A stretch of 64,000 nucleotides of DNA from the IMG/VR virus record IMGVR_UViG_3300006151_000005, positions 1 through 64,000 of that record, one strand, 5' to 3'. Shown here one piece after another: positions 21,237 to 35,879 of this stretch (positions are counted from its first letter, which is position 1; every line of letters starts with the position of its first letter). The position numbers and the translations under genes were made by a program. The notes beneath the pieces are model-generated. The model saw only the letters and a program-made list of their open reading frames with translations, had not been told where the DNA came from and made no database searches. The DNA comes from a virus (taxonomy: Duplodnaviria > Caudoviricetes).

Positions 21237-24200
21237 ATGGCAAAAGGTAAAGACGAGAAAATCCCTAATGGCAAAACACCGTGGGAGGGTTATGCCGGAA
21301 GCCGCGTTGAGGAATACATCAAGGAGGCACTTGCCGGCAAAGTGGGATATTTCCACAGACCCCAAGACAAAGGCAGTGATAACAACTATCATCTCTATGG
21401 CTTCGCCAGCGAGAGCGATTTCAACGAATGGAACAGCGACCCCGACAATAACGCGCATCTGCTGCTGACCGATGTCGCACTCCCCGCAAGCGGTGGCGGT
21501 TCAACCACGGCAAGCTATATTGTCAATCTGTATTCCGATTCACCGCAGACCATTGTCACGACCGATAACACGGTCAAAATCAACATCCGATTTACTTCGG
21601 AGGAGTTCAATCCTATCACGCAGACCACGCAGTCAACGACTGAGGGCGGTACGCTTACCGTCCAGACTCGTCTTAACTCGCAATCTGCATGGGTTACACG
21701 CGGAACGATAGAGAACATTCCATCTATCCCGGCAACGTCCACAAATGAATGGTGGCCTATCGACATCACAAACATGCTGAACACAGGCTCGCAGCAAGTC
21801 CGACTGATTGTAAAAGGCGATACGACCGGGCAGAACACCCGCTATCTGCAATTTACGGTCACGAAGACAACGCTCGGTCTGACTTTTGCGACGCAGTGGG
21901 AACGCCCTATTACTGACGGCATAATGCGCCTTTCTTACTATGTAAGCGGCGCAGTAAGCAAGACCCTGCACATCAAGATTGACGGTCAGCGCGAGATAGA
22001 GCGCAACATAGGCACGTCGGTTTACACGGAAACGCCTATTCAGGTAGATGTTACCGATGCAGTCACGGATACGGTCAAGGTGCTGACACACGGCATCCAT
22101 GAAATTGAGGCGTGGATTTCGGTTAATGATTCCACAATCCAAAGCGAGCATATTACTTCGCAGGTCATGGTTGTGGCAGATACGACCGACACGACACCGC
22201 GACTTATTCTGAACGACATCAAGTCTAAGCTGACAAACTGGACTGCGGAACAGATTTTAACCTATGCGGTCTATAATCCCAGCGGCGAAGCCACGCCCCT
22301 CAAGTTCATCCTTGAAAACTACACGGGCGATAAGCAGTACATGACGCTTGATGTCGGAAACGTGCCGAGTCAGGTCAAGCAGACCCTTAACAACGTTATC
22401 GAAATCGACTCCGAAGACACGACCATCAACGCCTACATGCGCTTCATGTCCGGCAATACCGCCATTCATCCTGTGCTTGGTTTTGAGGTTGATAACACGG
22501 AAAACTTCTCGCCTACAAGCAATCCCGACTTTATCCTTAATCCGCGTTCACGCACCAACGATGAAACGAATCCGCAAACCATTATCAATGCGGCCAACGG
22601 TCAGGTAATCGCGTCAACGTGGAAAGGCTTTGGACTGAAAGCCGACGGATGGCTTGAAGACAGCAACAACCAGCGTTGTCTTCGCGTCCTTGCCGGGCGC
22701 ACCATCGATATAGAACTTGAAACCCTCAAGGACTTTATCGGAACTAATAACCATTCATCGCTGACGGTGGAGCTTGATATAGCGACACGAAACGCCATCA
22801 AGACCGATGTACCGGTGCTTCGCATGTGTTCCTACCGCGACGATAACGGGCCGCAGGGCTTTGAGCTTCGACCGTGGCAGGCAGTCTTTATGACCCGCGA
22901 CAAGCGCGAGCGTGAAGACCAAGACGTAATGATAGGGGAAGGCCGACGCACACATATCGCCCTTAATATCATCTACGGCATCAACGGCACAAGCCAGAAC
23001 TACGTCCGCATCTTTGTCAACGGCAAAATCAACCGCGAATTTGAGTGGAGTCCGGAAGATGAATTTGTGCAGTACGTCAACGGCGTAAGAACGTCACAGG
23101 GCATACGCATTGGCTCGGAATACTGCGACATCGACATCTACGGCATACGCCTTTACAATCGCTCTTTGTCGGCAACCGACATCAGACAGGACTACATGGC
23201 ATCACTGCCGACCGTGGCCGAAAAGATTAAGTTCCGTGAAGACAACGACATTCTGGGCGACTCCAACCTTATCAGCTATGCCAAGACACGCGAAAAATAC
23301 AACACCATCGTAATCACGGGTCAAGTGCCGTCTTTCTCTACCGGCAATATCAAGACCAAATGCGATTGGGAAATCCATGTTGTCGGCGACCCCGAACATT
23401 CGGGTACGCTGAATAACGTGACAACCAGCGGTCAAGGTACATCATCGCGCTCGTATTGGAAGTGGAATCTGCAAGCCAAGCCCAACGACGATACCGATTG
23501 GATTGACGAACTCGGCAACCATCACGGTGCAGGTTATCAGCTTGATGATACAGTTCCGTTTGCCACTAAACTTGTAGCTAAGTTGAACTGGGCATCGTCG
23601 CAGCAGTCGCACAAGCTCGGCTCTTGCAACCTGTATACCGACCTTTGGCGGAGATGCACCGGCGGTAGTTCCATCACTAACACCGCAGGTTTTGAGAATT
23701 GCCGCGTGTCAGTCAAGCAAAAGCCGTTCTTCCTTTTTGTGCGCCCCACGGCAGACGCGGAGCCGGTATTCTACGGTCTTTACACGTTTGGCCCCGGAAA
23801 GGGCGACAAGCCGACATTCGGCTACGATAAGAAGAAATTCCCCAACTACCTGATGATTGAGGGTTGCGATAACGGCGAACCCTTGACCAACCATCGCATA
23901 CCGTGGAATGAAGACATTACCATCGGCGGCGATGAAGATGAACTTATTCAGTACAACGGCAGGAAGCAGTGGGAAATCGACATGGGCAACGCTGATTCGC
24001 TGTCTTACTTCAAAGACGCTTTCAACTTTGTCTATCTCTGCACACCGCACATCGAACCCTTTTCGGGAACACTCGCGCAGTTACAGGCCACTACCGAAGC
24101 CGACGTTAACCGGCAGACCCTTTATTGGGTCACACAAGCATCGGGCAGCTCGTCGGCAAAATACGACCTTTACCGCTACGATGAACTGACCTCGCAATGG

Positions 24201-27119
24201 GTGGATGCCGGCGTAGCCAAGATTTCCGCAGGAAAGTATGCCAAGCTGAACCTTGCCACACAGCTCGGCATTACGCCTACCGGCAACGTCTGGGCTGACA
24301 TCAACCAGCAATTCATTAATGCGCGTATCTTGAAATTCTCGCGTGAGGCATCGCAGTATTTCAAGATGAATGATGCGTTTTTCCATCAGATGTTCTGCAA
24401 GCTGATAGGCGCAAGCGATAATCGCGCCAAGAACACCTATCTATATCTTGCCACACATGACGGAAGCCTTAAAATCCACTTCGCGCAGGATGACCTCGAT
24501 ACAATCTTCTTGACTGATAACGTAGGACGCAAGAACAAGCCCTACTATGTTGAGGAGCATGACCGCGATGCCGACGGCGGCACATATTGGAACGGCGAGG
24601 CAAACGCCATGTATGACCTCTTTGAGCTGGCTTTCCCGACGGAATTACGCGCCATGATGAAATCTATTCTGGGCGAGATGGCAAACCTTGCCACAGACAA
24701 GACGCTGATGGGTTGCATGGAGGATTACTATTTCCATGTTCAGCGATATTTCCCGGCTGTCGCTTACAACGAAACGGCACGACTCCTTTACGAAGAGGCA
24801 TCCGCAAAGTGGGTCACTGGCGATTACATCGCTTCCACGCATCCCATCACGCAGTCGCTCGGCGACCAGCTTGAGGGTGAGATGCAGTGGGTCAAATTGC
24901 GCCTTATCTACCTGTCATCGTTTGCGTCTTATGGTGCTTTCACGATGAACGGTGAGGGGTCTTTGACTTTCCGTTCTGCTACCACAACAACGGGCGCAGC
25001 ACCTAACTATTCATTTGCGCTGACTCCGCACATGTGGATTTATCCTGCTGTGTCAGCGGGTTCATCTACAATGTTCGGTCGTGGAAAGGCACACCCCCAG
25101 CGTGTTAAAGCCGGCGAAACCTACATCCTTGACGGCGTGGCTGCTGACAATGATACCAACATTCAGGTTCACGGCATCCATTACTACACGTCGGTGGGCG
25201 AATTTGGCGATAAGTCACTTACCGGCACATTTACCGTATCCGGCGAGCGGCTCGTTGAGTTCCACGCTTCCAAACAGCCGATAGAGTTCAGACCTACGGC
25301 GGTTGAAGTAACCGCACCGAATCTGCGCGTCTTCGACATTAAGGGTGCTTCCACTGTGACGGGTAGCATCAATTTCACGTTGCAGACGCGACTTGAAGAA
25401 GTGGATATGCGCGGCACATCCATATCGTCGTTCCTTATCCCTGAACCCACCGGCATCACATCGCTGATGCTCCCGGCGACCCTTACGCGCTTGCAGTTGA
25501 CGGATTATAGCAAGTTGGAAAGTGATAACTTTGAGCTTGAGGGTGTTGCAAGCATCCAAAGTTTTGAATTTGCCAACTGCCCCAATCTGAGCAGTCAGAC
25601 CATCGTGTCAACCATCTGCGCCACGCCCAACAACAATCTTTCCGAGTGCAAGGTAAGCAATATCTACTGGCGTAGGTTTGCCCTTGAATATCTGATGAAG
25701 CTGGCAAGCATCAATGCAGACCTTTCAGGCAAGATTGAACTTGATGATTCCGCTACGCCTACGTTTGATGAAAAGATAGCTCTTCTGGATGCTTTCGGCA
25801 ACATCGACAGCGAAACCAACAAGCTCAATATCGCCTACAAGAAAGTCTATCTGACTTCAATGGAAATTACGGGCGATACCTATTTCAGTCAACCCGGCAC
25901 ATATCAGTTGCAGATTACACCGAATAGCCCACGTGCAAATGACTTCACGAAGATAGAATGGTCTATCTCCAAAAATTCATGCAACGCGACTATCAACGCC
26001 GTAACCGGCGAACTGACATTGCCTAAAGTTGGCACGGAAGCTGAAAAGCCCGAAGCCACGGTAACATGCAAGGCTACGCTTTCAGATGGTTCTACATTGA
26101 CGGCGACCACAACCCTCGGCTTCTATTTCAGAAAGTGTCGTGTTGGCGATTTGGTGTTCCATGATGGCACATACTCCGACAAGCCCAATAAAAACAAAGT
26201 AGCTATCGGCGTATGCTTCTACATCGACCCCAAAGACGAAACGCGCCGTCTGATGGTATCAACGCAGGAGCTTTCCACTGGTATTCAGTGGGGATTGTAT
26301 TTCAATAACGGTTCTGGCTCATGGGCAGAGGGAGGAAGCGATGACTTGAATTACAACATGCGCGATATTACCCTCGCGGACTCTCCCGGCTACAACGTCT
26401 ATGACACACCGGTTGCAAATATAGGTTCGCACGGTATGCAGACAAGCTATGTGACCGATGCCAACTACCGCGATGAGTACACCGATGACGGGTTCAAGGA
26501 ATTTGCCGACACGGTAGGCGCGGGCGATATAGGCTTCATGCGATTGCCGCGTGACTATACTTTCCGTGGTCACACATACGAAACCGGCACATATCTGCCG
26601 CGTGGCTTTTATAAGACCTTGCAGATAATTCAGCACCGTAATACTGTTCTGCAAGATTCCGATGTTGCACTACCATTACCGCAGGCTTCTGCCGACGAAA
26701 CGGAACTTGAATGTCTTAACCGGTTGATGTCGGATATTGTGTTAACGCACAATAACGCTTCAAAGTGGCGACAATTCTACTACCCGGCGGCTTCAATGTG
26801 TCACGCATTTCAGCCGACAGTCAAAGCAGGAATGACGCTTAACGACAAGTTCAAGTCCGGGATGTGGTTCTTGGGTGCTATCGGCGACTACTACCGTTGC
26901 TACTGGTACCATAAGGAGCGCAATGTAGAGAACAGCCAGTTCGCAATCTTTCAAAAGTGGGTGGAATTAGGATTGTTCAACGCATGGCGAGCTACATGGT
27001 ATTGGTCATCCACCGAGGCCAGTCAGGACATCGCTCGGAGCGTTTACTTCGTTGATGGCCTCACCTACAGCCACGCCAAGTACTACAGCGGCTCGGTGAG
27101 GGCGGTCGCCGCATTTTAA
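21237..27119 (+). CDS. DGR target: large receptor-binding/adhesin protein with a C-terminal C-type-lectin-fold variable region
   Basis: 1960 aa ending WYWSSTE...VRAVAAF; VR matches the repeat in the RT 5' region; LamG-like, CotH-like, LRR-like and Ig-like segments. Confidence 0.88.
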   Translation: MAKGKDEKIPNGKTPWEGYAGSRVEEYIKEALAGKVGYFHRPQDKGSDNNYHLYGFASESDFNEWNSDPDNNAHLLLTDVALPASGGGSTTASYIVNLYSDSPQTIVTTDNTVKINIRFTSEEFNPITQTTQSTTEGGTLTVQTRLNSQSAWVTRGTIENIPSIPATSTNEWWPIDITNMLNTGSQQVRLIVKGDTTGQNTRYLQFTVTKTTLGLTFATQWERPITDGIMRLSYYVSGAVSKTLHIKIDGQREIERNIGTSVYTETPIQVDVTDAVTDTVKVLTHGIHEIEAWISVNDSTIQSEHITSQVMVVADTTDTTPRLILNDIKSKLTNWTAEQILTYAVYNPSGEATPLKFILENYTGDKQYMTLDVGNVPSQVKQTLNNVIEIDSEDTTINAYMRFMSGNTAIHPVLGFEVDNTENFSPTSNPDFILNPRSRTNDETNPQTIINAANGQVIASTWKGFGLKADGWLEDSNNQRCLRVLAGRTIDIELETLKDFIGTNNHSSLTVELDIATRNAIKTDVPVLRMCSYRDDNGPQGFELRPWQAVFMTRDKREREDQDVMIGEGRRTHIALNIIYGINGTSQNYVRIFVNGKINREFEWSPEDEFVQYVNGVRTSQGIRIGSEYCDIDIYGIRLYNRSLSATDIRQDYMASLPTVAEKIKFREDNDILGDSNLISYAKTREKYNTIVITGQVPSFSTGNIKTKCDWEIHVVGDPEHSGTLNNVTTSGQGTSSRSYWKWNLQAKPNDDTDWIDELGNHHGAGYQLDDTVPFATKLVAKLNWASSQQSHKLGSCNLYTDLWRRCTGGSSITNTAGFENCRVSVKQKPFFLFVRPTADAEPVFYGLYTFGPGKGDKPTFGYDKKKFPNYLMIEGCDNGEPLTNHRIPWNEDITIGGDEDELIQYNGRKQWEIDMGNADSLSYFKDAFNFVYLCTPHIEPFSGTLAQLQATTEADVNRQTLYWVTQASGSSSAKYDLYRYDELTSQWVDAGVAKISAGKYAKLNLATQLGITPTGNVWADINQQFINARILKFSREASQYFKMNDAFFHQMFCKLIGASDNRAKNTYLYLATHDGSLKIHFAQDDLDTIFLTDNVGRKNKPYYVEEHDRDADGGTYWNGEANAMYDLFELAFPTELRAMMKSILGEMANLATDKTLMGCMEDYYFHVQRYFPAVAYNETARLLYEEASAKWVTGDYIASTHPITQSLGDQLEGEMQWVKLRLIYLSSFASYGAFTMNGEGSLTFRSATTTTGAAPNYSFALTPHMWIYPAVSAGSSTMFGRGKAHPQRVKAGETYILDGVAADNDTNIQVHGIHYYTSVGEFGDKSLTGTFTVSGERLVEFHASKQPIEFRPTAVEVTAPNLRVFDIKGASTVTGSINFTLQTRLEEVDMRGTSISSFLIPEPTGITSLMLPATLTRLQLTDYSKLESDNFELEGVASIQSFEFANCPNLSSQTIVSTICATPNNNLSECKVSNIYWRRFALEYLMKLASINADLSGKIELDDSATPTFDEKIALLDAFGNIDSETNKLNIAYKKVYLTSMEITGDTYFSQPGTYQLQITPNSPRANDFTKIEWSISKNSCNATINAVTGELTLPKVGTEAEKPEATVTCKATLSDGSTLTATTTLGFYFRKCRVGDLVFHDGTYSDKPNKNKVAIGVCFYIDPKDETRRLMVSTQELSTGIQWGLYFNNGSGSWAEGGSDDLNYNMRDITLADSPGYNVYDTPVANIGSHGMQTSYVTDANYRDEYTDDGFKEFADTVGAGDIGFMRLPRDYTFRGHTYETGTYLPRGFYKTLQIIQHRNTVLQDSDVALPLPQASADETELECLNRLMSDIVLTHNNASKWRQFYYPAASMCHAFQPTVKAGMTLNDKFKSGMWFLGAIGDYYRCYWYHKERNVENSQFAIFQKWVELGLFNAWRATWYWSSTEASQDIARSVYFVDGLTYSHAKYYSGSVRAVAAF
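27004..27115 (+). repeat. DGR variable repeat (VR) with IMH end
   Basis: 112-bp imperfect direct repeat of 27779-27893; all mismatches fall at codon positions 1-2. Confidence 0.92.
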
Positions 27120-27127
27120 TCCGGTAC

Positions 27128-27153
27128 GCAAGGGGTCGTTCCCGACCCCTTGC
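27128..27153. promoter_or_regulatory. DGR target-recognition hairpin/cruciform
   Basis: Perfect 11-bp inverted repeat GCAAGGGGTCG-TTCC-CGACCCCTTGC, 8 nt after the target stop codon. Confidence 0.85.
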
Positions 27154-27247
27154 ACTCATCGGAAACCATGTTCACCGCGAGATTATCAACAATAATAAAT
27201 AACAAATTCACTATCAATACGATAAGCAAAGCATAATTATCATTAGC

Positions 27248-27643
27248 ATGTCAAAACCCGCACAATTACCAATCTACCGCGCAGTCGAGCGTTTGATGAT
27301 TTGGGCTATCCCGGTCGTTGAACGCTTGCCTAAATCGCTTCCCTATCAAACCCTCGGAGGCTTACTCATCCGTGACATTAGAGAATGTATGGATGCCGTG
27401 ATTCTGACCACGCAAGCCTCCGATTACACACGCATCGAAGCCCTCAATATCTTGGTTGCACGCATGACTTCCGTCAAAACGACAATGCGGGTGCTTAAAG
27501 CATCGAAGAAGATAACGGCTCAACAAGAGGTGCAATTTCTGGATTTGATAAATCCCATAGCCATGCAAGCGGGTGCATGGATGTGCAAGATTAAAAAGGA
27601 AGCATCTCCAAATTCAGACAATGATTCTGCCGACCTTAAATAA
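27248..27643 (+). CDS. avd: DGR accessory variability determinant (Avd-like four-helix bundle)
   Basis: LPIYR...LPKSLPYQTLG...GAW; 131 aa between target and RT. Confidence 0.8.
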   Translation: MSKPAQLPIYRAVERLMIWAIPVVERLPKSLPYQTLGGLLIRDIRECMDAVILTTQASDYTRIEALNILVARMTSVKTTMRVLKASKKITAQQEVQFLDLINPIAMQAGAWMCKIKKEASPNSDNDSADLK

Positions 27644-27684
27644 GCCGACATCATCATATCAAGGAAACATTCAAGACTACGGTT

Positions 27685-29241
27685 ATGGATGTTATGAATT
27701 TTCTTTTATCCAATGGATACAGCACTGGAGTGTCTTCCATAGACGCTTTAGTTAAACACAAATTAGCCTGTGCATTACGGTCATCCACCGAGAACAGTCA
27801 GTACTACGCTTGGATCGTTTACTTCTATGATGGCTACACCGGCAGCTACTACGGCAAGTACTACAGCGTCTCGGTGAGGGCGGTCGCCGCATTAGATGAA
27901 GAAATTAAGATAGGTTGGATAGACGCTTTTGATGATTGTTGTGCGAAGAAGAAATCTTCGCCACAATGCAATGCTTATCGTATTGATTATGAGTTTGACT
28001 TATGGATGTTAATTGCCTCGGTATATCAACGGAACTATGCGCCGTCGATAAGCACCTGCTTCATGGTCACGCATCCGAAACTACGCGAAATCTTTGCAGC
28101 CCATTTCCGTGATAGGATAGTCCAGCACTGGATTATCATCCGTCTTGAGCCGCTGTTTGAGAAACGCTTTATAGCACAGGGTAATGTCAGCTTTAACTGC
28201 CGTAAGAACTTCGGAACGCTTAAAGCCGTCAATGCGCTTGAACGCGACATCGTGGAGATTAGCCATAACTACACGGTCGAAACACATATTGGAAGATTTG
28301 ACCTTAAATCTTTCTTTATGAGTATTGACCTGACAATACTTTGGAAACTGCTAAAGACTTTCATTATTAAGGAGTACAAAGGTGATGATATAGACACCTT
28401 ATTATATCTGACCGAGATTGTTGTTTTCCACAGACCGCAAGAGAACTGCTATCGAAATGGTGATATTGCCCTTTGGGATGACCTGCCGCCGCACAAGTCG
28501 CTTTTCAATCTTATGGAGCTAATTGGTATGGCTATCGGAAATCTTACCAGTCAGCAATTCGCCAACTTCTACATGTCGTTCTTTGACGAGTTTATGATAT
28601 GGCTTTGCGCCCGGTATGGATGCAAGTATGAAAGATTTGTCGATGACTTTGCTGTAGTTGGAAACAAGGATATAATATTGAATGTAATAAGACCTTTGGC
28701 CGATAAATTTCTTGCAAAGAAATTGCACGTGACGCTACACCACGATAAGTTTTACATCCAGCCGGTCAGACATGGAGTAAAGTATGTTGGAACGGTTATC
28801 ATGCCCGGTCGCAAATACATCAGCAACCGTACAGTAGGTGGAATGATAGACAAATTAAGAATGACTTCGCACGTCTGCGCGTCTATTTTACGAGGAAACC
28901 GTAATAGTCGCAACTTGGCGCTATTAAGGCATTGTATTGCCGCACTTAATTCCTACCTTGGCTTCATGGTTCATGTAAACGGTCATAACCTGCGCCGTAG
29001 AATCTTAAATAGCGCATCGCAAGACTTTTGGAAAGTCTGCTATGTTCAGGGAGATTATACCGTGATAAAGGTCATGAGGCGTTTCAGATTGACAAACTTT
29101 CTAAAAGAACAGGAAGATGCAGAAAACGACATTGCAATACGGCAACTCAAAGCCATCACCCGTAGAGGTTCAAAAAGACTGCGGAATGAAAATCCGCATC
29201 ATAAACTTCGACGTGACAAAGGCAGACGTAGAAAACTATGA
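27685..29241 (+). CDS. DGR reverse transcriptase (TR read in frame at the N-terminus)
   Basis: PKLREIFAAHFRDRIVQH, FDLKSFFMSID, GMAIGNLTSQ, RFVDDF, GVKYVG. Confidence 0.93.
   Translation: MDVMNFLLSNGYSTGVSSIDALVKHKLACALRSSTENSQYYAWIVYFYDGYTGSYYGKYYSVSVRAVAALDEEIKIGWIDAFDDCCAKKKSSPQCNAYRIDYEFDLWMLIASVYQRNYAPSISTCFMVTHPKLREIFAAHFRDRIVQHWIIIRLEPLFEKRFIAQGNVSFNCRKNFGTLKAVNALERDIVEISHNYTVETHIGRFDLKSFFMSIDLTILWKLLKTFIIKEYKGDDIDTLLYLTEIVVFHRPQENCYRNGDIALWDDLPPHKSLFNLMELIGMAIGNLTSQQFANFYMSFFDEFMIWLCARYGCKYERFVDDFAVVGNKDIILNVIRPLADKFLAKKLHVTLHHDKFYIQPVRHGVKYVGTVIMPGRKYISNRTVGGMIDKLRMTSHVCASILRGNRNSRNLALLRHCIAALNSYLGFMVHVNGHNLRRRILNSASQDFWKVCYVQGDYTVIKVMRRFRLTNFLKEQEDAENDIAIRQLKAITRRGSKRLRNENPHHKLRRDKGRRRKL
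27779..27893 (+). repeat. DGR template-repeat position (atypical, adenine-depleted)
   Basis: 115-bp copy of the VR located between avd and the RT core. Confidence 0.85.
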
Positions 29242-29503
29242 GTACTGTTGGAAGCGCGTCACCTTGCCGGTTTCGATATGGAATTACTCCGCTATCGTGG
29301 CGGCTATCATCAATGCGGCATATCCGGCAGACGATATGCAGGCAATCAACAACAACTACCTCCGCACGTTGGACGGCACTGACCTTGACCCGGACAAAAA
29401 GGCCGAATATCTTGCGGAACACTTTGAGATGAACGCCTACCGCGACCATGCAAAGACCGTAGCGAATGAACTTCTTGCCTATGCGCAGGAACATAACCTT
29501 TGA
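29117..29503 (+). CDS. hypothetical tail-module protein
   Basis: YSAIVAAIINAAYPADDMQAINNNYL; overlaps the RT 3' end by 125 bp. Confidence 0.7.
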   Translation: MQKTTLQYGNSKPSPVEVQKDCGMKIRIINFDVTKADVENYEYCWKRVTLPVSIWNYSAIVAAIINAAYPADDMQAINNNYLRTLDGTDLDPDKKAEYLAEHFEMNAYRDHAKTVANELLAYAQEHNL

Positions 29504-29529
29504 AGAAACCCCTAAACAACAATACAACT

Positions 29530-29814
29530 ATGAGCAATTCAACTTCCAAATGGCCCGGTTATTTATACCGCGTCTTCATCGGCTTTGTTATAGCCGCAGT
29601 CATCAGCCCGCTTGTGGCACATATCCCGCCTCACATCGGATGGCTGTCGTTCCTTGTCGGCATCATCGCCGCAATCGTTATCGGCATCCGTCAGTCAGTG
29701 AAAGAGGCGAAAGAATCCAAACGTTCACGCATTATGCTGTTCGGCATCGTCTTCAACATCGTAGGCGGTGCGCTCGGCGGCATAATAGGCGTACTGGCCG
29801 CACATTTCATCTAA
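29530..29814 (+). CDS. membrane protein (3 predicted TM segments), lysis-module associated
   Basis: Hydrophobic segments; upstream of the holin. Confidence 0.6.
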   Translation: MSNSTSKWPGYLYRVFIGFVIAAVISPLVAHIPPHIGWLSFLVGIIAAIVIGIRQSVKEAKESKRSRIMLFGIVFNIVGGALGGIIGVLAAHFI

Positions 29815-29924
29815 ACGTATCGACGGCTTACAGTGGTGCTTTCCATTACTGCAACCCGCCCTTGTAGTAACCAATCAATCACATTTAACATCAACCAGCA
29901 GTTTTACACGACTTCTTTGAAGCT

Positions 29925-30392
29925 ATGGCGAGCGGCATCAGCGTCACGCACGTCTATCAGCACTTCGGAATCTCCCTCGCTCTTTGGATACTTGTAATCA
30001 TCGCAGTCCTTATCGACCTATGGGATGGCGTTTACACCGCCCGGCGACTTGGGCAGCGCGTACACAGTCACAAGCTCCGCGTCACGATAAGGAAGATAGG
30101 CGAGTATTGGCGATTCATCCTTATGGGATTTGTCGCCGACACCATCGGCATCCTGTTCCCATTCTGGGTGTGGCCTTATCTGTCAATCCTTATCTGCCTC
30201 GGCGTTATCTGCATTGAGGGCAAAAGCGTTTTGGAACACGCGAAGAAACGCAAGAGCCATGTGGCAGACATCCCCGGCATGGTAAAGGATATAATCGAGT
30301 GTGCGTCGGAACATGATGCTCTTGACTTACTTGACCGCATCAAGGGTACACTGGACGAAGAAAACGCTAAATATGTAGAAAAAGACCATTAA
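29925..30392 (+). CDS. putative holin
   Basis: TM segments; IDLWDGVYTARRLG..HSHKLRVTIRKIGEY...IEGKSVLE. Confidence 0.75.
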   Translation: MASGISVTHVYQHFGISLALWILVIIAVLIDLWDGVYTARRLGQRVHSHKLRVTIRKIGEYWRFILMGFVADTIGILFPFWVWPYLSILICLGVICIEGKSVLEHAKKRKSHVADIPGMVKDIIECASEHDALDLLDRIKGTLDEENAKYVEKDH

Positions 30393-30393
30393 C

Positions 30394-30906
30394 ATGAAAC
30401 ATCTCTTATCATTCCTTGCATTAGTCGCGGTCATCCTTTGTGGATGCACCCGGACAATCTATCAGCCCGTGGAAACTGTGCGTACCGATAGCATTAGCAC
30501 GACCGCAGAGTTCAACGAGGCGCAGTTCCAATACTTGCTGAACGTCTTGAAGCATCAGGTCAACACCCGTGATAGCGTCGTTATCCGTGATAGCGTCGTT
30601 ATGGTTGTCAACGAAGCCGGCGGCGTAGTAAGCAAAGAAGTATTCCGCGACCGCGACCGAAATCACTCAAGGGATGAAGCCATCACCCAGATGCAGGCGA
30701 AATACGACAGCATCTTCAAGGCGCAGCGCGAAGAGTTCAATGCCGTGCTTGACCAAATCCAGCAGATACCCATGCTGGTGGAAAAGCCCTTATCGAAATG
30801 GGAGCAGCTCAAGCAGGAAGTCGGAGGCATCGCCATCGGGATTCTTGTCGCCATTCTGTCAATCGCCGTAATCTGGCTTATACGGAAGATAAAACACCAG
30901 CAGTAG
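30394..30906 (+). CDS. lipoprotein, unimolecular-spanin-like
   Basis: N-terminal lipobox (ILCGC) and C-terminal TM helix; follows the holin. Confidence 0.65.
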   Translation: MKHLLSFLALVAVILCGCTRTIYQPVETVRTDSISTTAEFNEAQFQYLLNVLKHQVNTRDSVVIRDSVVMVVNEAGGVVSKEVFRDRDRNHSRDEAITQMQAKYDSIFKAQREEFNAVLDQIQQIPMLVEKPLSKWEQLKQEVGGIAIGILVAILSIAVIWLIRKIKHQQ

Positions 30907-31024
30907 CCTTGGATTGATTCTTTTCTCATTTGGTTTATTAGGATTGCAGGTGCGTTGTGAAACGTGCCTGTTTTCCTTTCCATAAACACAAAAAGAAACG
31001 CCTAAAATTGAGCGTTTCCTTTGA

Positions 31025-31230
31025 TTTTGCCCCACTTTTTGCCCCACCCATTTGTAAGTAGGTGATTTTCAGTAGGGATGGTGGAGCTGGAGGCTCTACC
31101 GATAAAATTTTCACTCGCTTGCATACACTGTAACTACCATTCTTTTCAGTGACTTACACTCTTGTTTCCGAAATTGGTTTTTCATACGCTTTCATTTATC
31201 TTCATTTTCCTGCCCCTCCTTTTGCCCCAC
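31025..31230. other. attP region: tmRNA-3'-like core flanked by arm-type repeats
   Basis: Core 31079-31093 reads CCTCCAGCTCCACCA on the minus strand; TTTTGCCCCAC at 31025, 31037 and 31220 (degenerate copy at 31208). Confidence 0.7.
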
Positions 31231-34217: not shown

Positions 34218-35174
34218 ATGAGTAATTTGGAACAATACGTTTCGCCACCCACAGAGGTACCGGCAGCTGAATTGATTTCAGTCATGGACTCTTCTGAACG
34301 TGCGAATGTTGACATTCAGATTGTCACAGCAAAGCGTTATCCGCGCAATCTGAAAAGGAGTATCGAAAACGCCATCGTCATGGCAACCCTTGACGTGGAA
34401 ACAGCAGACAAAATGGGTTACGCATTGAATCGTGGCGGGAAACCCATCACCGGCCCATCGGTACACCTTGCGAAGCTGATAGTCGCCCAGTATGGCAACA
34501 TGCGTATAGATGCGCGTGTAATCGCCATCAACGAGCGCGAGGTTGTGTCACGCGGCATGGCTTGGGACTTGGAAAGCAACAACGCCTATGCCGTAGAGGT
34601 TAGACGCTCTATCATCGGCAAAAACGGACGATTCAGCGACGATATGATAACCGTTACAGGGAACGCTGCAAACGCGATTGCATTGCGCAATGCAGTTTTT
34701 GCCGTCATACCGGGCGCGATAGTTGACAAGGTGTATCGCGCGGCCCAGCAAACAATCACCGGCGACCTTTCGGATGAAAACAAACTCATTCAAAGCCGCG
34801 AAAAGGCTATCAAGTATTTCAAGGAGCAGTACGGAATAACGGAAGAAGAAGTTATCAAGCTCTGCGGCAAGTACACGAAAGCCCAGATATGCGCCTCCGA
34901 AATCGCGTTATTGCGCGGCATGATGCAAGCTCTTCGTGACGGCGATACGACCGTAGAAGACCTTATGTCGCCCATTCGTAATAGCAAGGAAGCCAAATCA
35001 AGCAAACTCACTGAAATGGCATCACGCGCAGCCGCAAAGGGTGCGAAGAAGACCACGGCTAAACCCGTAGAGGAATCGGAAGATGCCGCCAAAGAAACAG
35101 TAGATACTGAAACGGGCGAAGTTAAGACCACCGACAGCGGCGAGCCTATGCAAGCCCCTAATCCCCAAATCTAA
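34218..35174 (+). CDS. putative recombination (ssDNA-annealing-position) protein
   Basis: Directly upstream of the YqaJ exonuclease and SSB; disordered charged tail; family not recognised. Confidence 0.5.
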   Translation: MSNLEQYVSPPTEVPAAELISVMDSSERANVDIQIVTAKRYPRNLKRSIENAIVMATLDVETADKMGYALNRGGKPITGPSVHLAKLIVAQYGNMRIDARVIAINEREVVSRGMAWDLESNNAYAVEVRRSIIGKNGRFSDDMITVTGNAANAIALRNAVFAVIPGAIVDKVYRAAQQTITGDLSDENKLIQSREKAIKYFKEQYGITEEEVIKLCGKYTKAQICASEIALLRGMMQALRDGDTTVEDLMSPIRNSKEAKSSKLTEMASRAAAKGAKKTTAKPVEESEDAAKETVDTETGEVKTTDSGEPMQAPNPQI

Positions 35175-35180
35175 TAAGCC

Positions 35181-35879
35181 ATGTCAAATCTCAGCTTTAC
35201 ACAGGAACAGCGCACTCTAGAATGGTATCGCGCTCGCCTCGGCTACATCACCGGCAGTCAGGTAGGCTCGCTGATGAAAAGTGGCCGTACAAAGGACAAA
35301 GTGTTTTCAGACACCGCCCTTACATACCTTTATCAACTTGCGGGGGAACGCTCGCTGAACCCCGAAATTGTCAAGGATGATAATATGTTCACATTCTACC
35401 TTGAGCAAACCACATCGCAGTCAAAGGCTATGCGCTTCGGCACGGAGCAGGAAGAAAATGCACGTGTCATGTACGTCACGATGACTGGGCGCGAGGTTAA
35501 GGAGGTAGGCCTCTGCCACCATCCCAAAATCAAATATCTCGCTTCATCGCCGGACGGAATAACCGCCGACGGCGACGTGATGGGATGCGTAGAAATCAAA
35601 TGCCCCACACTGTCAACATACAGCAAGTATGTTGCGGAAATCCACGACAACGACTCGCTCAAGAAAGTCAATCCGGACTACTTCTATCAGTGCCAGAATC
35701 ACATGGCCTGCACCGAGGCTAAATTCTGCGACTTCATCGTGTATTGCCCCTTTGTGGAAAATCCTATCCACATCGTGCGCATCAAGCGCGACAAAGATGC
35801 CATCGCACTTATCGAGGAGCGCGTGGAACTCGCAGAGCAAATCATCGAAGAAAACTATTCACAACTCAAAAGAGCATAA
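35181..35879 (+). CDS. YqaJ/lambda-exonuclease family protein
   Basis: QRTLEWYRARLG.ITGS, ASSPDG, VEIKCP, YFYQCQ. Confidence 0.92.
   Translation: MSNLSFTQEQRTLEWYRARLGYITGSQVGSLMKSGRTKDKVFSDTALTYLYQLAGERSLNPEIVKDDNMFTFYLEQTTSQSKAMRFGTEQEENARVMYVTMTGREVKEVGLCHHPKIKYLASSPDGITADGDVMGCVEIKCPTLSTYSKYVAEIHDNDSLKKVNPDYFYQCQNHMACTEAKFCDFIVYCPFVENPIHIVRIKRDKDAIALIEERVELAEQIIEENYSQLKRA

Follow-up and report, generated by a model that had tools for sequence, protein, structure and literature searches.

Probable replacement of a phage DGR template by an adenine-mutagenised copy of itself

DGR biology assumes that information flows one way only, out of a template that does not vary and into a target that does. 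In the phage locus described here, the template repeat (TR) and its target copies (VRs) disagree at T and G as well as at A, and the TR contains a single AAC codon. This raised the question of which copy had departed from the rule, and by what route.

The DGR locus and its repeat copies

The window, meaning the whole 64,000-nt stretch of DNA that was analysed, covers the initial 64 kb of an IMG/VR phage record of 105.5 kb (IMGVR_UViG_3300006151_000005), the completeness of which is estimated at 87%. The features of the DGR and two neighbouring genes are listed in Table 1, together with a third repeat copy, VR2, that lies in the same record beyond the window.

Table 1. Features of the DGR, of an exonuclease gene and of the gene beside it (positions in the window unless stated).
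Feature	Position	Strand	Basis or remarks
DGR target gene 1, 1960 aa, probable tail fibre/adhesin, VR1 at C-terminus	21237-27119	+	ORF list
VR1	27004-27115	+	14-nt constant head, 75-nt variable core (27018-27092), 23-nt GC-rich IMH-like tail
Hairpin after VR1	27128-27153	+	11-bp stem, 4-nt loop, 13 nt past repeat end
probable avd, 131 aa	27248-27643	+	weak profile matches; size and position fit
RT ORF, 518 aa, in-frame read-through of TR; RT domain from about residue 80	27685-29241	+	Pfam, phrog
Altered template repeat (altered TR)	27779-27893	+	between avd and RT domain; TR-type flanks on both sides
Variable core of the altered TR	27793-27870	+	78 nt; one codon more than the family TR
318-aa protein adjoining the exonuclease, candidate single-strand annealing protein	34218-35174	+	position; weak Atlas leads
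YqaJ-type recombination exonuclease	35181-35879	+	Pfam YqaJ, E = 9e-24; phrog RecE-like exonuclease
VR2 (third copy)	104419-104530 of the record, beyond the window		end of a 234-aa ORF; repeat search of the full record

The RT was recognized by Pfam RVT_1 (E = 1.9e-9, 38 bits; cut-off 29.6) and by phrog_1423, reverse transcriptase (E = 8e-53). Like the RTs of the relatives, it carries the motifs IGNLTSQ (residue 284), which we take to be typical of DGR RTs, and FVDD (residue 318). The avd protein matched NCBIfam DivGenRetAVD (E = 2.5e-7) and Pfam bAvd (E = 1e-4) with 31 and 23 bits, under the curated cut-offs of 80 and 40, respectively. The index of the assembly collection listed the exact avd protein for 771 blocks. 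Target gene 1 falls in a 90% protein cluster of 275, and the 15 members listed all had distinct VR tails (15/15).

As expected of a DGR, the 23-nt GC-rich end is identical in TR and VR, after which the sequences diverge, and an inverted repeat follows VR1 and VR2 only, not TR. The hairpin after VR2 is equivalent to that after VR1. In DNA folding, the VR1 hairpin gave -19.6 kcal/mol (z = -4.5) and the VR2 hairpin z = -4.7; downstream of TR no hairpin was found (z = -0.3). The stems of the VR2 hairpin in two related contigs (L043 and L044) varied on both strands relative to L002:1625-1650, with the pairing kept (e.g. GTGGGCAGTCG and GCGGTCAGTCG). This variation supports a conserved structural role of the hairpin. 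In layout and signals the locus is an ordinary, complete BPP-1-type phage DGR, and its departure from the type lies in the state of the TR.

The TR lies in frame within the RT ORF, which opens with an ATG at 27685; downstream of the TR, the first in-frame ATG is well inside the conserved N-terminal region of the RT. This arrangement is family-wide, the 517-aa ORFs of four relatives (L012, L014, L015 and L017) running through the Asn-rich template. If translated, the altered TR would therefore turn the N-terminal extension of the RT from Asn-rich to Tyr-rich. A 90% protein cluster of 541 members (P0001/P0155) combines RT ORFs with the 234-aa target protein, possibly because of the peptide common to TR and VR, and such a mixed cluster can mislead cluster-based annotation. 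In the window, the TR stands between two direct copies of an 11-bp repeat, ATAGACGCTTT (27740-27750 and 27920-27930), as it does in L017. This repeat was dropped as a meaningful signal, since it is degenerate or absent in other relatives.

An earlier note on this DNA, made from the sequence alone, had counted 16 substitutions and a 3-nt indel between TR and VR1. A codon-aware alignment confirmed the counts: of the substitutions, 5 lie at TR adenines, 8 at thymines and 3 at guanines, all at codon positions 1 and 2, with the third positions constant. As the sequence stands, TR adenines account for 5/16 of the differences, and the copies do not obey an adenine-only rule. The single AAC and abundant TAC that the note had remarked on were likewise seen, the core at the TR position containing AAC once, TAC eight times and TAT once.

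When the three copies were aligned, each variable column was compatible with an A in a lost template. The altered TR had 3-4 derived states in common with VR1 or VR2, and the mean over all pairs was 3.1. This sharing at background level ruled out that the altered TR was copied from the present VR1 or VR2.

Relatives with an intact template

Relatives were collected through the RT protein and the TR-specific flank (six IMG/VR, three metagenome and one MAG contigs), and an exact-protein look-up of avd added nine ENA contigs. At the same locus, all of these ~19 contigs (IMG/VR, JGI, ENA and one MAG) carried an intact AAC-rich template, designated TR0, in which every adenine was identical. Variation of TR0 among lineages was confined to synonymous third positions (GTT/GTC, GCT/GCA, also AGT/AGC/TCG). 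The RT-ORF proteins P0005, P0011, P0015, P0016 and P0017 agreed with this conserved TR0. The note had proposed that TR and VR1 both derive from an AAC-rich template lost from the window, and had advised a comparison of the TRs in close relatives. The comparison bore this out, with TR0 found at exactly the TR locus.

Outside the repeats, the nearest strain with TR0 (L017) differed from the window at 4 positions over ~2.7 kb. Between the two TRs there were 14 substitutions, every one an A in L017 and a T or G here (27802-27869), and here a 3-nt (one-codon) insertion in the (AAC)4 run. Hence the change is recent, and it affects the template alone. The 112-nt repeat has 39 adenines, and the 14-15 changes relative to the family template were confined to these (p = 1.6e-8 to 6e-8) and absent from third codon positions. 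The altered TR, VR1, VR2 and the L017 TR have in common the lineage marker AGC, at which most relatives have AGT.

The same template also accounted for the VRs. Scored against TR0, VR1 and VR2 together gave ~33 changes at A and 1 elsewhere, in agreement with adenine-specific mutagenesis. VR1 contributed ~19 of the changes at A and the sole non-A change, TGG>CGG at 27036 (Trp to Arg). A homing event would have reset this position, which is Trp in all other VRs seen (~40 alleles).

Could the RT itself have changed? An enzyme of relaxed specificity had been one of the options in the note, and a survey gives it some ground, having found that 23% of DGRs have non-A-to-N differences, with as many as 11 in a single target, and suggested atypical incorporation by the RT as a possible cause (PMC5758913). 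In the relatives, the RTs of which are 89-99% identical to that of the window, TR/VR differences nevertheless numbered 183 at A and 1 at non-A. Outside the TR, the RT differed from those of close relatives by 2-3 residues. The sole lineage-linked RT change, E412A, was ruled out as the cause, since L016 has E412A together with an intact TR0. Acquisition by recombination of a foreign, natively Tyr-rich template is opposed by the flanks and third positions of the altered TR, all of which equal those of L017, whereas more distant TRs vary at synonymous sites. Ordinary point mutation is excluded as background by the density of changes, 14 in 75 nt against that outside the repeats. We give very little credence to these three explanations taken together.

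One-codon insertions in the same AAC run were present in the VRs of L008/L009, L017, L029 and L044/L045. Such insertions are frequent in VRs of the family, occasionally of two codons (including the proteins P0003 and P0014), and none of the family VRs seen was shorter than the template at this run. The RT seems to slip forward often there. At the level of sequence, the A-only changes and the slippage in the AAC run showed that the altered TR bears the signature of the element's own RT. TR0 is accompanied by 12 distinct VR alleles and, to judge from these sequences, the DGR of the TR0 family is clearly active.

The earlier note had also raised a remote or trans-acting template, and had suggested a search of the remaining genome or metagenome for an AAC-rich third copy. 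The third copy turned out to be VR2, itself derived from TR0. In the record of the window and in those of four relatives, the repeat occurred precisely three times, as a TR and two VRs in homologous places, and no second avd or RT was seen. If the TR-position copy and the VRs were all targets of some other intact template, remote or in a co-resident related prophage, the TR position would be a target that lacks the target hairpin. The missing part of the record might hold a second template, and related phages bearing TR0 are common in the same sample type, but the copy numbers and the lack of a hairpin make this explanation very improbable.

A few further sequences were examined for changes in the template. 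One 502-aa RT ORF from Logan (P0002), which belongs to another lineage, had a single AAC>ACC (Asn to Thr) within the template AAC run, which may be a minimal template erosion or a point mutation. A search with truncated RT-ORF N-termini returned four proteins, of which three had an intact AAC-rich template, one of these being from a more distant relative. The fourth (P0019; 69 aa, 769-bp ENA contig) joins the RT-ORF N-terminus and the TR 5' flank to a VR-like core that ends as VRs do (AAF, stop), which makes it a chimeric or recombinant product of a TR/VR junction. The phage GenBank records searched gave no match, and no further carriers were found among 401 sampled genomes from the family of the MAG with the related prophage.

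Recurrence and origin of the altered template

The exact 518-aa ORF with the altered TR was found on six contigs, from several JGI assemblies and from Logan SRR23863895. The Logan strain (L022) has 94 clustered differences from the window in the target gene (24746-26412) and an identical TR. The divergence of this 1.7-kb block, 5.6%, suggests that recombination has made the fibre gene a mosaic upstream of the VR. From 26413 to 31093 (4.7 kb) there were only three differences, none of them in the TR.

VR1 was equal in the two strains except at its first variable codon (27018-27019, GCC vs AGC). Two of the three differences thus lie in this codon, which aligns with the single remaining AAC of the altered TR. 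They could be due to a DGR that is still partly active, or to positive selection on a frozen binding tip. VR2 was identical across five JGI samples of the lineage.

These occurrences bear on a further option of the note, an assembly chimera in which the assembler would have placed a VR variant of the population within the TR flanks. Apparently chimeric junction contigs do exist around the repeats (L026, L016 and P0019). However, several JGI assemblies contain the identical altered TR, and so does a Logan contig, which stems from a separate run and represents a different strain. The exact matches between the altered TR and the VRs reach at most ~24 nt, and the altered TR equals neither VR of its genome. 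Logan assemblies use k = 31, which would make threading across such matches unlikely. We therefore regard a chimera as barely conceivable.

One contig of the lineage (L026; JGI contig 3300006141) had an altered TR with T27862G (TAC vs GAC; region of L026:1804), where TR0 has an A. This was the only difference in 2 kb. Adenine mutagenesis cannot convert either allele to the other, which implies a point mutation or an intermediate template. A single event is insufficient to give both the T and the G allele, unless one of them is a plain point mutation.

In L026 and in L016/L005 (IMGVR_UViG_3300006154_000046), a small VR2-type target gene, located after a YopX gene, is fused to avd-TR-RT at the shared repeat end. 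Either the assembly was wrongly joined across ~35 shared bases, or the contigs represent a real VR2/VR1 recombinant without ~25 kb. When more copies of the altered TR were sought through the TR-specific downstream flank in viral, metagenome and genome collections, from which near-identical records may be missing, only intact templates were returned.

These comparisons of sequence make it very probable that an adenine-mutagenised copy of the family template took the place of the TR, through integration of cDNA into the TR itself. The ancestral template was TR0, AAC-rich and with the AGC marker, and VR1 and VR2 were templated by it before the TR changed. The RT would have made a cDNA from TR RNA with A-to-T/G changes and a slip of one codon in (AAC)4. 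The mutagenised cDNA would then have integrated by homology at the TR locus in place of a VR. Such a cDNA would match the TR flanks perfectly, and phage recombination functions may have assisted. The VRs, having been written from TR0 before the event, for that reason disagree with the altered TR at T and G. Since the TR has no VR-type hairpin, integration there cannot be canonical homing.

Among the options of the note, the writing of cDNA or converted sequence onto the TR itself fitted best. Its picture of a self-exhausting DGR, in the sense of ongoing repeated rounds, is conjectural.

We infer direct integration of the cDNA, rather than donation by a VR, because the two VRs of the genome derive from TR0 and are unlike the altered TR. 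The alternative is gene conversion at the DNA level, in which a selected, diversified VR would have been copied into the TR by homologous recombination. Tyr occupies 8 of the 14 former AAY codons in the altered TR and 24% of them in VRs, and the altered TR exceeds any VR in this respect (p = 0.012). None of the 8 non-AAY adenines was changed (0/8). With this pattern, which resembles that of selected VRs, the altered TR could have been a VR under selection at an earlier stage. Contigs with novel joins between repeat and flank also exist (L026, L016 and P0019), and RT-independent recombination between TR and VR has been described in a DGRec preprint (10.1101/2025.03.24.644984).

On the other hand, the only two VR loci are those already found to resemble the altered TR at background level. 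A donor VR would need either to have been rewritten later from a TR0 that has since vanished, or to have originated in a co-replicating genome. The homology between TR and VR is, moreover, just 14-23 nt per side. Gene conversion was judged unlikely, and direct integration of cDNA is preferred.

The genes that might have assisted integration were also considered. The 318-aa protein next to the exonuclease belongs to a family of 4736 matches at E <= 1e-5, mainly from Bacteroidales phages and prophages. Sequence and profile searches gave no Pfam, NCBIfam or PDB match, and a Foldseek fold search with its model (pLDDT 54) gave none either. Atlas returned weak leads to Rad52, RecT and Sak (0.75-0.77). 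The protein is possibly a candidate annealing protein. The relatives should have the same recombination genes, yet they retain TR0, which counts against the proposed integration.

A more general reading is that natural DGR cDNA can integrate by plain homology without IMH or hairpin signals, perhaps promoted by the phage's own recombination genes. The template would then be a low-frequency recipient in the wild, kept intact only by purifying selection. Joined to this is the suggestion that the Tyr-centred altered TR still functions as a restricted template, giving Tyr, Phe, Ser or Cys at most positions. We hold both ideas, taken jointly, to be rather doubtful.

Consequences and comparison with known systems

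The altered TR retains 20 of 34 core adenines and 1 of 13 AAC codons, and the lone AAT codon has become TAT. The theoretical repertoire would fall from ~10^20 protein variants with TR0 to ~10^12. Neither a degenerate pattern run against viral contigs nor the 15 target-cluster members listed yielded a VR templated by the altered TR. On this ground the lineage may now rely on ordinary mutation to change its receptor-binding tips. The time since the event may also simply be short.

The lineage, standing beside a near-identical sister strain with TR0, suggests that the one-way rule of DGRs leaks in nature and that the leak can cripple the system. Such an event leaves a recognisable scar: compared with relatives the template has changed at A only, a codon has slipped into its AAC run, and the VRs do not fit their own template. 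Detection pipelines that require adenine bias would miss or misjudge loci of this kind.

The DGR of Bordetella phage BPP-1 (mtd-VR, avd, TR, brt; PMC3240598, PMC5703328) has the same order of target, avd, TR and RT. The two systems also have in common a VR at the C-terminus of the target, a GC-rich TR/VR end followed by divergence, and a GC-rich hairpin after the VRs and not after the TR. The adenine-specific changes of canonical mutagenic retrohoming in BPP-1 are matched in the relatives of the window. The TR of BPP-1, however, 'remains unchanged throughout the process' (PMC3240598), whereas the TR of the window bears the signature of mutagenesis. Here, in addition, the TR is in frame in the RT ORF, and a second target lies ~25-28 kb off.

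By its TR/VR1 differences, the locus would fall in the 'non-canonical mutagenesis' class of Wu et al. (PMC5758913), with 11 non-A-to-N differences, equal to their maximum, and a 3-nt indel by AAC repeats. They described codon slippage in AAC runs for DGRs generally, and saw the source of the non-A-to-N differences in infidelity of the RT, in errors of integration or in mutations that arose independently. The relatives of the window show a changed template instead of a changed RT rule. Some of the non-A-to-N cases in surveys may thus be damaged templates, not sloppy RTs.

Loss of adenines from the template has been treated as an evolutionary option in a theory preprint (10.64898/2026.02.18.706561). 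Self-mutagenesis of a natural template was not found in open-access text, the cases found being engineered ones. In E. coli, with a DGR and recombineering by an annealing protein, the template 'overwrites itself', 'continuously erasing adenine from TR' (10.1101/2025.03.24.644984; 10.64898/2026.07.21.739853). As proposed for the window, the template in these systems is overwritten by adenine-mutagenised cDNA, adenines are lost, and the diversifying capacity goes down. Both DGRec (10.1101/2025.03.24.644984) and its continuous-evolution version (10.64898/2026.07.21.739853) need added CspRecT and a block of mismatch repair, and their authors contrast them with natural DGRs. These systems are artificial, with the annealing protein added, whereas the window represents a natural lineage of phage, and the altered template has become fixed in it. 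The template erosion that limits engineered DGR mutagenesis would thus have a natural counterpart, and the pair of strains offers a means to test template protection.
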